Shown: positions 59,666 through 63,830 of the stretch, piece by piece | Position numbering within the stretch: position 1 is the stretch's first letter | Layout: each line of letters begins with the position of its first letter | Assembly (NCBI GenBank): GCA_027491395.1 | Contig: JAOZFI010000041.1 | Span: 64,001-128,000 of the forward strand | Direction of reading: 5' to 3' | Origin: Thermoproteota archaeon | GTDB taxonomy: Archaea > Korarchaeota > Korarchaeia > Korarchaeales > Korarchaeaceae | DNA: 64,000 nt | Position numbers and translations under genes: made by a program | Notes under the pieces: model-generated | The model's input: only the letters and a program-made list of their open reading frames with translations | Databases searched by the model: none | What the model was told of the DNA's origin: nothing

Positions 59666-60985
59666 TTAAGAGGTTGAAAATAGTGACCATCTTACCAGCG
59701 AGTCGGCCGATCTCAGCGCACGGCATGGGGTGGGGTAAGCGGGTATGCCCTTCCTCCTCAAGGAGAGGACCGCCTCCAAGGCCTTCTTTCCACCCATTAT
59801 CACCGGTATTATCGGCTTATCATAAAGATCCCAGAGGTCGTATATCATACTAGCGAACCTCATGGGATCAGAGAGAGCGGTCTCACAATGCAGGGCAATG
59901 ACACCATCCACATCCCTCCTAGACATAAGCACATCCAGCACGCCCCTGTAAACATCGGTCCCAGCTCTACCTGTTATGTCGACAGGATTGGTGGAAAAAT
60001 TCCCACCTTCCGGTACGAACTGCCTCATCTCCTCAATCAGATCATTGCCGGGCTCGGGTAAGTCAAGAATGGAATCAGAAGACATCCCCTTAAGGAGCTT
60101 TCCCGCTCCCCCGCTGTTGGTCACGGCGATGAAGGATCTCCCTTTTATCCTCTTACCGGAAAGCGCCAGGGCCATGTCCAAGGCTGTGATCACATCATCA
60201 GTTATCGGTAGATTACCCTGAAGTCCCTTTAACTCCTCTTTCACCTGATCTGAAGCCGTGAGGATAACCAAGGGCTTCCTTCGGGCTACCTCTTCGACTG
60301 CGGCCTTCAATGAACCTCTATCCTTAACGCTCTCGGCATGCAGCACCAAGGACCTGGTGCTCCTATCTTCGGCTAGATAACTCAGAACTTCACTCTCGCT
60401 GACATCCAGCTTGTCGCCCAGCCCTATCACCGCTGAGAGTCCGACACCTTGGACAGTGGCTAGGCCCATGAGTGCCATTCCTAAGGTACGGGACTCCGTG
60501 ACGAGGCCAACTCCTCCCTCAAGCACCTCCATGGGACCTAGTGTGGCGTTAAGTCGGCTCTTGATGTGGAATATGCCCATAGAGGACGGGCCCAAGATCC
60601 TTATCCCGTGTTTCTGTGCTGACTCGTATATGTCGTAGGAGGAGGGGTCACCTCTCTTCCCAGAAATGACTACGGCTACCTTAACGCCCTTGGCGCCGAG
60701 CTCCCCCATGATCTTCGGGATCCTCTCAACGGGCGACACCAAAATTGCGAGATCTATGTCCTCCGTCACATCCAGAACCGTCTTATAGCATCTGATATCG
60801 TGTATCTCTGCGTACTTGGGATTCACAGGGAATATGGGCCCAGGGAAACCGTACTTAACCAAGTTGGTGAGGACCTCGTAACCCATCTTGCCGGGAGTCT
60901 TGGACACGCCGATAACCGCAATGGATCTGGGCTCAAAGAGGGTTCTCAGTGTATCTTCCTCCACGAAGGAAATCACCTCCCTCAA
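59666..60985 (-). CDS. ADP-forming acyl-CoA synthetase alpha-like protein lacking the phospho-His loop
   Basis: PRSIAVIGVS, FPVNPK, TNSGG, NPVDITG retained; the G.T..G......SHTG segment is deleted and GPNC becomes GPSS. Confidence 0.85.
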   Translation of the reverse strand: MREVISFVEEDTLRTLFEPRSIAVIGVSKTPGKMGYEVLTNLVKYGFPGPIFPVNPKYAEIHDIRCYKTVLDVTEDIDLAILVSPVERIPKIMGELGAKGVKVAVVISGKRGDPSSYDIYESAQKHGIRILGPSSMGIFHIKSRLNATLGPMEVLEGGVGLVTESRTLGMALMGLATVQGVGLSAVIGLGDKLDVSESEVLSYLAEDRSTRSLVLHAESVKDRGSLKAAVEEVARRKPLVILTASDQVKEELKGLQGNLPITDDVITALDMALALSGKRIKGRSFIAVTNSGGAGKLLKGMSSDSILDLPEPGNDLIEEMRQFVPEGGNFSTNPVDITGRAGTDVYRGVLDVLMSRRDVDGVIALHCETALSDPMRFASMIYDLWDLYDKPIIPVIMGGKKALEAVLSLRRKGIPAYPTPCRALRSADSLVRWSLFSTS

Positions 60986-61506
60986 CCTGACTCAGCGGCA
61001 ACTGCCCTCCAGATCGCATCTCCGGCGTGATGCAGATTCTTCACGGATCTTCCCCTCTCCTTTATCTGATCCGGCGGTCTGAGAGCCCTGCCTATGGCTA
61101 TGGTTGCCCCTAACCTCTCGTCGACCACGACTACCAAGTCTCCCTCGTCGAAGTTCCCCATGACCTCCTTGATGCCCGGTCCCATGACGTGGGCTCCGCT
61201 GGCTATCGGTTTAACCGCCCCCAAGTCCACTACCACCTTAGGTAGATCGAGACCGAACTTCTCGACGGCCGTAAGGAAGGGTATGAGGTCATTATCCTCA
61301 GTGGGGAGCTCAACGAGCACGGGTTCCCCCTCATAGTAATAGACCTTGGCCATCTTCCCCTTCCATGGAACCTCGAGCACTTGGAGGGAGATCTTCCTTT
61401 TACTGAAGACGTTGCTCATGCTCCTTATCTCCTTGACCGCCCTGTCTATGATGGTCTTACTCTGCTTTACCGTAATCGCGTATTTCCTCCCCGGAATTGC
61501 CCTCAC
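60982..61506 (-). CDS. PUA-domain RNA-binding protein (DUF1947/MCT-1-like)
   Basis: VVVDLGAVKPIASGAHVMGPGI...GDLVVV...AIG...KNLHHAGD. Confidence 0.88.
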   Translation of the reverse strand: MRAIPGRKYAITVKQSKTIIDRAVKEIRSMSNVFSKRKISLQVLEVPWKGKMAKVYYYEGEPVLVELPTEDNDLIPFLTAVEKFGLDLPKVVVDLGAVKPIASGAHVMGPGIKEVMGNFDEGDLVVVVDERLGATIAIGRALRPPDQIKERGRSVKNLHHAGDAIWRAVAAESG

Positions 61507-61525: not shown

Positions 61526-61602
61526 TGGCGCCCGGGCCGGGATTTGAACCCGGGTCTGGGGCTCGACAGGCCCCTATGCTAACCGGGCTACACCACCCGG
61601 GC
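61526..61602 (-). tRNA. tRNA-Asp(GTC), intronless, CCA encoded
   Basis: GCCCGGGTGGTGTAGCCCGGTTAGCATAGGGGCCT-GTC-GAGCCCCAGACCCGGGTTCAAATCCCGGCCCGGGCGCCA; TTTATAA about 26 nt upstream. Confidence 0.97.
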
Positions 61603-61638: not shown

Positions 61639-62481
61639 TCACCGTTTCCGCCTCAGGCGCTCGTAGACCAGCTTCATCTTCAGGGCATCCCTCTCTAACA
61701 AGGGGGACTCAGAGATCACCAGCCACCGGACATCTTTTTCCACCATGAGCTGAGCTAAGGGCTCGAACTCGGGACCATAGCCGGAGCCCAGTTCGTGGTG
61801 CATCCTCTCCCCGTAACCCGACTTAGTGGGCTCCACCTCGGTGAAATGCACGACGAGACCGTCTAATGTGCCCAACCTGCCCTCTATCTCATCTAAGATC
61901 TTCTCGTAGTCTTTCCTGCCCTTGATCACGCCTCCATCCCTCACGTGTATATGGGCGAAGTCCACAGTCGGCACGACACTATCAACACTCTCGGCCATGG
62001 TGAGCACGTCGTCTAGGGAACCTAGTTGCGAGGGCTTCCCCGTGGTCTCCGGGCCGAGCTCTACTTGGAGTCCTCTGCCCTTTATCACGCTGTTGAGACG
62101 CTCCAAAGCATTTATTGCCATCTTCAAGGCCTCATCTCTCCCGAACTTACCGTAGTATCCTGGGTGGAATGTGATGTGCCTCGCGCCCATTCTATGGGCA
62201 GCCACGGCCGCGGATAAGATTCTCTCAATGCTTGCTTCCCTCTTTTTGGGATCCTCGGATGCCAAATTTATGGCATAGGGTGCGTGAAGTGAGAGCATTA
62301 CGCCGTTCTCCTCTGACTGCTCCCTTATCCATTTAAGCAGTTCTTTGTTCTTCGGAACTGACCTGACGGCTTGGTATTCCATCCCGTCTAGCCCTAGGCT
62401 CCTCAGATATGTGAATGCCTCCTCCTTAGGGGCATCCAATGGGTAACCAGCTGGCCCAAACCGAGTTCTATCGATGTCCAT
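61639..62481 (-). CDS. nfo: Endonuclease IV family (archaeal Nfo-like)
   Basis: RFGPAG, SLHAPYAINLAS, FHPGYY, PETTGK..QLG, VDFAH, HFT, ISESP. Confidence 0.9.
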   Translation of the reverse strand: MDIDRTRFGPAGYPLDAPKEEAFTYLRSLGLDGMEYQAVRSVPKNKELLKWIREQSEENGVMLSLHAPYAINLASEDPKKREASIERILSAAVAAHRMGARHITFHPGYYGKFGRDEALKMAINALERLNSVIKGRGLQVELGPETTGKPSQLGSLDDVLTMAESVDSVVPTVDFAHIHVRDGGVIKGRKDYEKILDEIEGRLGTLDGLVVHFTEVEPTKSGYGERMHHELGSGYGPEFEPLAQLMVEKDVRWLVISESPLLERDALKMKLVYERLRRKR

Positions 62482-62562
62482 CCCTTCCTCGATCTCCCAT
62501 GTAAGACATTATCCTTACGCCTCCCTCTCCTCCTTTTACTGTTAAAAGTCTTGATATAAGGT

Positions 62563-62584
62563 GGAAGGGTTATATACCCCTTCC
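62563..62584. promoter_or_regulatory. TATA box embedded in a 22-bp near-perfect palindrome
   Basis: GGAAGGGTTATATACCCCTTCC (20/22 symmetric); TTATATA starts 28 nt upstream of the structured RNA. Confidence 0.6.
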
Positions 62585-62597
62585 GGTTCTATATGAT

Positions 62598-62757
62598 GGG
62601 GTCGCCCGGCCCTTGGCGGGCTTAGCCCGATGTGCGGGCTATGGCCTACCACCGAAGTGGAAGGGGCCCTAAATTGGCCCCGATCTCGGGCGTCCTCAGG
62701 ACGCCTCCCTCCGGACACCGTGCCGAGCGACCCCCCGCACCTCCACCTCCTTCGGTG
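62598..62757 (+). ncRNA. Candidate structured RNA / 5' leader of the PflX-like gene
   Basis: Closing stem GGGGTCGC-C-CGGC/GCCG-A-GCGACCCC encloses the hairpins TAGCCCG/CGGGCTA, CCAC/GTGG, GGGGCC/GGCCCC and GGGCGTCC/GGACGCCT. Confidence 0.7.
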
Positions 62758-62762
62758 ATAGC

Positions 62763-63830
62763 ATGGCATGGTTCCTGAGGCCAGACGCTTTCTCGGCCTT
62801 CGAGAACGAGGAGATAAGGGACACAATACCGAGGTACATAAGAGTGGTGAGGAGGGAGGAACCTCCCCTCTTCAGACTGACTCAGAGGATCTTCTTGGAT
62901 GTGGGCGACGATCCTTGGGCCACTCACGACGAGGGACTCCAGATACTCTCGAAATGCGTGGTAGAGGGAGGATGCCCTAAGGAGAAGAGAGATGGGAGAA
63001 CCTCCTTGCTCGAACTCAAGGCACTCTTGGCCAAGGACCTGCTCCGAGAGTGCAGGCTGTGCGAGTGGAAGTGCGGTGTGAACAGACTTGAAGGGGAGAT
63101 AGGTGTCTGCAGGGTCCGAGACTCACGAGTGGCGAGCGCCTTCATTCACATGGGAGAGGAGGCCCCTATAACCCCTTCTGGAACTATATTCTTTACCGGA
63201 TGCAACTTCAGGTGCATCTTTTGTCAGAACTGGGATATATCCCAATTCCCTGAATCAGGCAAGCGGGTGGACGAACGGGAACTTGCGTCTATTATGGACG
63301 AGCTGAGGAGGCAGGGCGCCAGGAACATTAATCTGGTCGGAGGAGAGCCTACACCCAACCTCCCCCTGATAATCTCGTCCCTCAACCTCGTCAGGGAGAA
63401 CTTCCCCGTTGTGTGGAATTCCAACATGTATATGAGCGAAGAGGCTATGAAGCTCCTGCTCGGTTTGGTGGATCTCTGGCTGCCGGACTTCAAGTACTGG
63501 AACGATGAGTGTGCTAGGAAGTACAGCGGGATCCCTCGCTACAGGGAGACCGTAACTAGGAACTTGAAAATGGCGTACGACTATCCGCCCGGGGAGATGG
63601 TGCTGAGGCACTTGGTCCTTCCTGGGCACTTGAACTGCTGCACGGAACCAATCTTGAGGTGGATCTCCGATAACATCCCCGACATATTGGTGAACATAAT
63701 GGATCAGTACAGGCCCGAGTACAGGGCCAGCAAGTTCGACGAGATAAACAGGAGGGTGACTACTGAGGAGATGACGAGGGCCTATCGGCTAGCTGATGAA
63801 CTGGGCCTGAAATGGAGATCCGTCAGCTGA
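62763..63830 (+). CDS. PflX-like radical SAM protein (COG1313)
   Basis: CRLCEWKCGVNR...G.C, H.GEE....PSGTIFFTGCNFRCIFCQN, GGEPTP, PDFKY, RHLVLPG, MDQYRP; SD GGTGA. Confidence 0.9.
   Translation: MAWFLRPDAFSAFENEEIRDTIPRYIRVVRREEPPLFRLTQRIFLDVGDDPWATHDEGLQILSKCVVEGGCPKEKRDGRTSLLELKALLAKDLLRECRLCEWKCGVNRLEGEIGVCRVRDSRVASAFIHMGEEAPITPSGTIFFTGCNFRCIFCQNWDISQFPESGKRVDERELASIMDELRRQGARNINLVGGEPTPNLPLIISSLNLVRENFPVVWNSNMYMSEEAMKLLLGLVDLWLPDFKYWNDECARKYSGIPRYRETVTRNLKMAYDYPPGEMVLRHLVLPGHLNCCTEPILRWISDNIPDILVNIMDQYRPEYRASKFDEINRRVTTEEMTRAYRLADELGLKWRSVS

Follow-up and report, generated by a model that had tools for sequence, protein, structure and literature searches.

A conserved structured RNA leader upstream of a PflX-like radical-SAM gene in one family of Korarchaeota

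A structured RNA of 137 bases (62598-62734, + strand) stands before a gene for a PflX-like radical-SAM protein in the window, the stretch of 64,000 nucleotides of korarchaeal DNA that was analysed here. We hold, with moderate confidence, that it is a new, family-restricted, cis-acting leader of the pflX-like mRNA, and that it most likely controls the initiation of translation. The analysis establishes how the leader is structured and conserved, on which strand it lies, that it is strictly linked to pflX and that there is no room for a second promoter between RNA and gene.

Locus, promoter and predicted fold

The leader is located within the 281 nt between two divergent genes (61639-62481, - strand, and 62763-63830, + strand) and ends 28 nt before the pflX ATG. 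In the minimum free energy (MFE) fold of 62598-62734, a 13-bp closing stem, P1, encloses four hairpins. The MFE of a 168-nt stretch is -84.9 kcal/mol, as compared with -68.2 +/- 4.1 kcal/mol for 200 dinucleotide shuffles (z = -4.10), none of which is as stable. The leader is also a G+C island, with a G+C fraction of 0.68-0.70 vs about 0.53 in its surroundings. The parts of the locus, with the basis on which each was assigned, are as follows.

61639-62481, - strand: divergent xylose-isomerase-like TIM-barrel (AP_endonuc_2) gene, syntenic with the RNA-pflX unit
62570-62577, + strand: TATA box TTATATAC, read from the sequence and preceded by a purine-rich, BRE-like GGAAGGG
62598-62610, + strand: 5' strand of P1, GGGGUCGCCCGGC (MFE fold; covariation)
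62618-62641, + strand: G-run / C-run / G-run segment, with GGGC at 62618-62621 and GCCC at 62625-62628
62623-62628 with 62636-62641, + strand: hairpin UAGCCC-GAUGUGC-GGGCUA (MFE fold)
62649-62660, + strand: P3 hairpin CCAC-CGAA-GUGG, 62649-62652 with 62657-62660 (by eye)
62663-62681, + strand: P4 hairpin GGGGCC-CUAAAUU-GGCCCC, 62663-62668 with 62676-62681 (alignments)
62689-62705, + strand: P5 hairpin GGCGUCC-UCA-GGACGCC, 62689-62695 with 62699-62705 (MFE fold)
62706-62721, + strand: 3' junction UCCCUCCGGACACCGU (alignments)
62722-62734, + strand: 3' strand of P1, GCCGAGCGACCCC (MFE fold; covariation)
62735-62762, + strand: tail and putative expression platform, a C-rich repeat CACCUCC-ACCUCC followed by UUCGGUGAUAGC
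62754-62759, + strand: Shine-Dalgarno sequence (SD) GGUGAU, with a local 4-bp hairpin of CACC (62744-62747) with GGUG (62754-62757)
62763-63830, + strand: downstream cistron (open reading frame), a PflX-like radical-SAM gene of 355 aa

The sequence elements quoted in the preliminary description of this DNA all lie where it placed them: GGGG from 62598, the end of the closing stem at 62734, the ATG at 62763, GTGCGGG at 62632-62638, CCCGCAC at 62734-62740, GGTGAT at 62754-62759, CACCGAAG at 62650-62657 and CTTCGGTG at 62750-62757.

The first base of TTATATAC is 28 nt before 62598, and the RNA begins about 25 nt past the BRE/TATA box. Aligned relatives have an A/T-rich box whose first base precedes the first G of P1 by 28-29 nt, and by eye the same spacing is seen in other genera. 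Because of the position of TTATATAC and the usual archaeal distance from TATA box to start, transcription is predicted to start within the first bases of P1, at about 62598-62601. The TATA box is also flanked by an 8-bp inverted repeat, TGGAAGGG ... CCCTTCCG (62562-62585), which was flagged by a terminator-like scan and, by eye, is present only in the seven genomes of the window's clade. In archaea, palindromes that span a TATA box are typical sites for repressors.

The protein encoded downstream matches the Pfam families Radical_SAM (1.4e-20) and Fer4_12 (2.2e-12). No NCBIfam model reaches its cut-off, with NrdG2 as the best match (51 bits vs a cut-off of 131), and the automatic name of its Atlas clusters is 'pyruvate formate-lyase activating enzyme-like'. 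The N-terminal 140 aa (62763-63180), before the radical-SAM core, match no Pfam family. This N-terminus is Cys-rich (CRLCEWKCGVN...GVCRV) and might house an additional site for a metal or cluster. On the other side of the locus, a tRNA-Asp (GTC) gene at 61526-61602 (- strand) lies between a PUA-domain gene (60982-61506) and the TIM-barrel gene; mechanically called open reading frames overlap this tRNA on both strands.

Distribution, covariation and conserved parts

The leader is a single-copy element of one family (f1). BLAST located one copy, at 73-97% identity, in 17 of the 20 other genomes of the window's genus (g1), and no copy in the 20 genomes of other genera that were searched. A covariance model built from 18 sequences (R1) detected it in 18/20 g1 genomes, among them G003, whose divergent copy scored 60 bits; with filters off, R1 also reached copies in genera g3 and g5 at E values of 0.002-0.06. 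A second model (R2) gave exactly one match per genome, in 18/20 genomes of g1, 5/5 of g3 and 4/4 of g5. It gave none in g2 (0/5), g4 (0/1) and the families f2 (0/2) and f3 (0/2), and in a phylum-wide search of 29 genomes that are at least 85% complete it found nothing outside family f1.

Both models miss a longer form of the element that occurs in g2 and g4, and the covariation counts given below are made without these two genera. The pflX orthologues of four further genera of the family have a G+C-rich, P1-closed leader at the same place. In g2 and g4, the closed part is about 150 nt long and has an additional hairpin, and some 125 more structured, G+C-rich bases follow before the start of the gene; this form was seen in 4/5 g2 genomes by BLAST and in 1/1 g4 genome, partly by BLAST and otherwise by eye. 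At these loci (L118-L121, L129), the start codon is probably UUG, as judged from the reading frame, and an SD-like GAGGGUG is paired to an upstream UUUUCUCUC.

Taken together, the leader is present in 33/33 genomes of this Korarchaeota family in which the 5' region of pflX is assembled, and these belong to five genera. It is absent from the four genomes of the two sister families (f2 and f3), and the DNA upstream of pflX is short and A/T-rich in f2, f3 and more distant archaea. Three genomes of the family have no leader: one holds only a C-terminal pflX fragment at the end of a contig (G014), and in the other two (G019 and G042, 70-72% complete) no pflX was found either. In all of the 32 genomes in which its position relative to pflX was examined (the 33 except G050), the leader is directly upstream of the gene. 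A hairpin-pattern scan of metagenomes matched 119 stretches, and 80 loci were examined; the pattern is unspecific, and the four of the 80 loci that scored with R2 are presumed, from their scores, to be copies that were already known.

The 28 nt between P1 and the ATG have no A/T-rich box and no run of five T, and pflX would therefore have to be read from the promoter of the leader. Judged from the sequence, the element would be the 5' leader of pflX, with a gene that lacks its own promoter and an RNA that lacks an evident terminator.

Two alignments were used for the analysis of base pairing. The first (A5) comprises 15 sequences from three genera (10 from g1, 3 from g3 and 2 from g5) and is fitted to the model, which favours it: 97.5% of its 435 cells are standard pairs, and 12 of the 32 pairs are changed on both sides. 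These double changes are distributed over P1 (6), P4 (2) and P5 (4), with none in the UAGCCC hairpin. None of 500 shuffles reaches any of the measures, and slid partners are 36-53% paired. The second (A2) is a MAFFT alignment of 18 g1 genomes that is not fitted to the model; here 96.7% of the cells are paired and four pairs are double-changed. Within the genus, most stems are invariant in A2 and hardly covary, and the terminal loops vary freely. Conservation and covariation among relatives, on which the preliminary description had let its reading depend, are thus both present.

We place the RNA on the + strand because G·U cells exceed A·C cells (15 vs 4 in A5 and 17 vs 4 in A2) and because a BRE/TATA box is found upstream on this strand in all genera. 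The C-A mismatch in the closing stem, which had earlier been taken to leave the strand uncertain, is real, but it belongs to this genome only; the pair concerned (10/135) is C-G in 17 of the 18 aligned genomes. The fold, the alignments and the G·U counts together bear out the earlier proposal of a multi-stem RNA: it is real, conserved and covarying, and it is located on the + strand between the promoter and the pflX-like gene.

The individual parts of the leader differ in how they are conserved. In P1, 6 of the 13 pairs are changed on both sides in A5, with 97.8% of cells paired; within the genus, pair 8/137 is changed from G-C to A-U in 7 of the 18 genomes of A2. P4 is the best-conserved module. 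Its cells are 100% paired in A2, with C-G replaced by U-A in two genomes, and 2 of its 6 pairs are double-changed in A5 (GGGGAUC/GAUCCCC in G047 and GGGGUC/GGACCCC in G046). The 7-nt loop of P4 follows the pattern C-NNN-R-U-U, the three middle bases being free. Within the genus, P5 varies in its loop but not in its stem; in A5, 4 of the 7 stem pairs are double-changed.

The UAGCCC/GGGCUA hairpin is 97-99% paired in A2 and A5 and shows double changes in neither. The C-run in this segment is able to pair with either G-run, and which pairing wins varies by species. Other versions of the three runs are GGGU/ACCC/GGGU (G003), GGGCC/GGCCCC/GGGGC (g2) and GGGGA/UCCCC/GGGGA (G024). A conserved bistable hairpin, in which the first and second or the second and third runs would pair, was considered and dropped, since the winning hairpin differs by species. 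For GCGG (62617-62620), two candidate long-range partners were examined by eye, and both have many mismatches.

By eye, P3 is retained, its stem occurring in at least five different sequences. The variants within the genus include CGCG/UGCG, GCGG/CCGC and CGCG/CGCG, and other genera have CCCC(C)/GGGG(G) or GCAG/CUGC; no clean P3 was seen by eye in G016 or G003. The junctions GCGGGCUUAGCCC, GGAA, GAUC and CCCUCCG-AC are nearly invariant within g1 and are not kept in g2, g3, g4 and g5. Only P1, the module of P3, purine linker and P4, and the C-NNN-R-U-U loop recur across genera, and the number of hairpins varies.

Three further identities for parts of the leader were examined by eye and rejected. 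A K-turn at P4 was set aside, as the GAA/GAU flanks misfit the tandem G·A consensus of K-turns and are not conserved. No boxes of an H/ACA or C/D RNA were seen. The insertions and deletions are not in threes, which argues against a small open reading frame in the leader.

Possible pairing with the ribosome-binding site

The 5' half of P3 is complementary to the SD region in the window's clade. The complementarity extends over 13 bp with two 1x1 mismatches and has a free energy of -16.2 kcal/mol, which none of 200 shuffles of the SD window reaches. Values of -16.2 to -18.7 kcal/mol are obtained in six of the seven genomes of the clade and -14.1 kcal/mol in the seventh, G011, with 0-2 of 200 shuffles as good. 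Two substitutions within the duplex (in G011 and G008) retain the pairing as G·U. The duplex was not found in G009, G020, G004 and G003, where 23-131 of 200 shuffles are as good. The other half of the genus (group B) has a different P3 sequence, and the SD lies in a local 7-bp hairpin, CUCCGCC/GGUGGAG. In G007, this hairpin has undergone a double change, from CUCCRCC/GGUGGAG to CCCCACC/GGUGGGG.

The pairing of P3 with the SD would be a clade-specific expression platform and is not a feature of the family, because it is absent in G009, G020, G004 and G003 and because P3 differs in the other half of the genus. The anti-SD pairing of CACCGAAG with CUUCGGUG put forward in the preliminary description therefore stands beyond chance for the seven genomes of the window's clade and fails elsewhere in the genus. 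A second exchange proposed there, in which GUGCGGG would swap to pair with CCCGCAC, did not hold up: it exceeds shuffles in only 5 of 19 genomes and is not beyond chance outside the window's clade.

Between 37 °C and 80 °C, the calculated free energy goes from -12.5 to -3.1 kcal/mol for the 7-bp SD hairpin of group B and from -5.1 kcal/mol to 0 for the 4-bp SD hairpin of the window's clade. As a free duplex, the 13-bp pairing of P3 with the SD retains -5.1 kcal/mol at 80 °C; with P1 formed, this duplex is a pseudoknot and falls outside the scoring of nested-fold programs. In the nested ensemble, the mean probability of being unpaired over the stretch from SD to AUG ranges from 0.34 to 0.69 at 37 °C and from 0.50 to 0.77 at 80 °C.

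We infer that transcription starts at P1 and reads through into the gene, and we propose a switch that may work as follows. If transcription starts at the first base of P1, the folded domain would form before the ribosome-binding site is made. The likeliest point of action would be the initiation of translation. In the window's clade, the 5' half of P3 could alternatively form the 13-bp duplex with the SD region (62750-62762), so that the SD would be free when the folded core is stabilised and hidden when the core is unfolded. For the other half of the genus, it would be the local 7-bp hairpin that covers the SD. Either a metabolite or a protein could serve as the trigger. On the modelled pairings, a switch in the window's clade that is rebuilt differently in other clades is plausible. 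Two points from the same modelling speak against a switch: the SD does not appear convincingly closed in the nested ensemble, and the genus as a whole does not share the alternative pairings.

Relation to described RNAs and competing readings

The leader is unlike the RNAs that have been described. A search of the whole window with Rfam 15 at gathering thresholds returned two tRNAs only. With the threshold relaxed to E <= 10, the region 62400-62900 (501 nt) gave nine noise matches, which contain no Moco, no SAM class and no other riboswitch; they are unrelated families (mir-1249, CRISPR-DR28, snoR639 and others) that score far below their gathering thresholds. The preliminary description had proposed this search, and no known stand-alone RNA family was matched. 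The resemblance to the Moco/Tuco RNA that it had suggested is not borne out, with no match to the RF01055 covariance model even at E <= 10. ARAGORN found no tRNA-like gene at the leader, only the tRNA-Asp at 61526-61602. Identification as RNase P RNA, SRP RNA or 5S rRNA was rejected: in the same genome, RNase P RNA is on contig C26, SRP RNA is at C45:45243 and 5S rRNA is on C8, and 5S rRNA is located elsewhere in 5/5 genomes tested. As judged by these searches, the leader matches no described RNA family and is a new one.

Among the known systems, translational riboswitches resemble the leader in that the mRNA of one particular gene begins with a multi-helix domain closed by P1, in that a conserved core is joined to a variable expression platform and, for the window's clade, in that a core segment is complementary to the SD. 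They differ in that the junctions of the leader are not the same between genera, its alternative pairing is clade-specific, it is restricted to one archaeal family and it matches no riboswitch of Rfam. The Moco/Tuco RNA (RF01055) is likewise about 140 nt long, multi-stem and upstream of a cofactor-related gene, but its covariance model does not recognise the leader. Protein-binding leaders, such as the autoregulatory leaders of ribosomal-protein and L7Ae mRNAs, are also structured 5' UTRs, and the conserved helices and free terminal loops found here suit recognition of helices by a protein. In contrast to these, the leader is linked to the gene of an enzyme and not of an RNA-binding protein, and no K-turn is seen by eye. 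The Hgc RNAs, which Klein, Misulovin and Eddy reportedly described in 2002 as G+C-rich non-coding RNAs of hyperthermophiles, resemble the leader in standing out as G+C-rich islands; however, the leader is gene-linked and not free-standing, and it has no Rfam match above noise.

The element could instead be a stand-alone or processed structured small RNA, with pflX only sharing its promoter by read-through, though we think this unlikely. The inferred start at the first base of the closing stem, the single copy and the high sequence conservation would all suit such an RNA, and in G003 alone a run of five T follows the core. Against this, the element adjoins pflX in all 32 genomes examined for it, out of the 33 that have it, and no copy was found away from pflX. 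There is also no conserved T-run terminator past P1 and no room for a pflX promoter, the interior hairpins vary between genera, and the RNA is not RNase P, SRP, 5S or tRNA.

The genome G004 bears on this question, since its leader stands beside a decayed pflX. The pflX pseudogene of G004 has ten stops in its best tblastn match, lies in pieces in three frames and misses about 300 nt; no other pflX orthologue was found in the genome. The divergent TIM-barrel gene is also a remnant beside the decayed pflX (L014, ~800-2440). This adjacent decay suggests one shared pathway for the two divergent genes. With both flanking genes wrecked, the RNA core is still 88.9% identical to that of the sister genome G020 without an indel in 135 nt, whereas the flanks contain indels and reach 71-77% identity when only ungapped columns are counted. 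All seven stem changes in G004 preserve pairing, as counted by eye. In a three-way test of substitution rates, in which G004 was compared with G020 and with G009 as the outgroup, the following changes were counted.

RNA core: 9 specific to G004, 1 specific to G020 (binomial p = 0.02)
pflX remnant: 139 specific to G004, 52 specific to G020
Intact downstream gene: 31 specific to G004, 44 specific to G020

The core has thus accelerated in G004, 9 to 1, in the manner of the pseudogene: its asymmetry differs from that of the functional neighbour (Fisher p = 0.005) and not from that of the pseudogene (p = 0.46). On the other side, its per-site rate of 0.067 is below the 0.187 of the pflX remnant (Poisson P = 2e-4). 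From these sequence comparisons, constraint on the RNA seems to have been relaxed when pflX died, with decay still incomplete. We had taken G004 as proof of an independent RNA and revised this after the three-way rate test; the pattern favours a gene-linked role for the leader, and the surviving core leaves some probability for an independent one.

A leader that does not switch at all, and constitutively protects the 5' end of the mRNA or sets a fixed low level of translation at high temperature, is a further possibility, and to us a rather improbable one. Such a leader would account for a P1 that opens at the inferred +1, for G-C-rich stems that are frozen in the genus beside freely varying terminal loops, for an interior architecture that differs between genera, for an SD that stays mostly open in the nested ensemble and for alternative pairings that lack conservation. 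However, a simple protective hairpin would not need four or five helices, and neither the conserved C-NNN-R-U-U loop of P4 nor the junctions GCGGGCUUAGCCC and CCCUCCG-AC, nearly invariant in the genus, would be needed. The 13-bp complementarity of P3 to the SD, far beyond shuffles in the window's clade, is likewise unaccounted for.

We also see a small chance that the leader is the first riboswitch class native to Korarchaeota, that is, a metabolite-sensing aptamer that gates translation of the radical-SAM enzyme. Its ligand would perhaps be connected with radical-SAM chemistry or with the pathway of PflX and the TIM-barrel protein. As far as the alignments go, the lack of conservation of the junctions between genera weakens the case for a small-molecule pocket. 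The variability of junctions and hairpins suits an RNA that is recognised by a protein or is purely architectural as well as, or better than, it suits a metabolite pocket.

An RNA thermometer, in which a helix that hides the SD would melt on heating and thereby turn on pflX, is very improbable: the SD hairpin of group B is marginal at growth-like temperature, as the values above indicate, but the local hairpin of the window's clade has no stability left at 80 °C, the stretch from SD to AUG is mostly unpaired at 37 °C and 80 °C, a thermometer would not need a conserved 137-nt multi-helix domain, and a hot habitat, in hot springs and vents, is taken only from run labels ('hydrothermal vent metagenome') and from Korarchaeum being hot-living. 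The thermosensor considered in the preliminary description is doubtful on the same grounds.

Our preferred reading thus remains a cis-acting leader that acts on the translation of the pflX-like mRNA. Cis-regulatory structured RNAs are, to our knowledge, rarely described in archaea, and we know of none from Korarchaeota. The titles and abstract openings found in literature searches contained nothing on this leader or on the function of PflX, and those on Korarchaeum and riboswitches nothing about such an element. The leader is a clean and testable case, with a new family, a clear promoter, covariation across genera and strict linkage to one gene, and one clade offers an explicit 13-bp alternative pairing over the SD. 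It also indicates that one family can retain the core and yet rebuild the expression platform. PflX belongs to a widespread and uncharacterised family of archaeal radical-SAM proteins, and a ligand or protein partner of the leader would provide a handle on its function. If the riboswitch reading is true, the ligand would also reveal what the PflX-like enzyme does.
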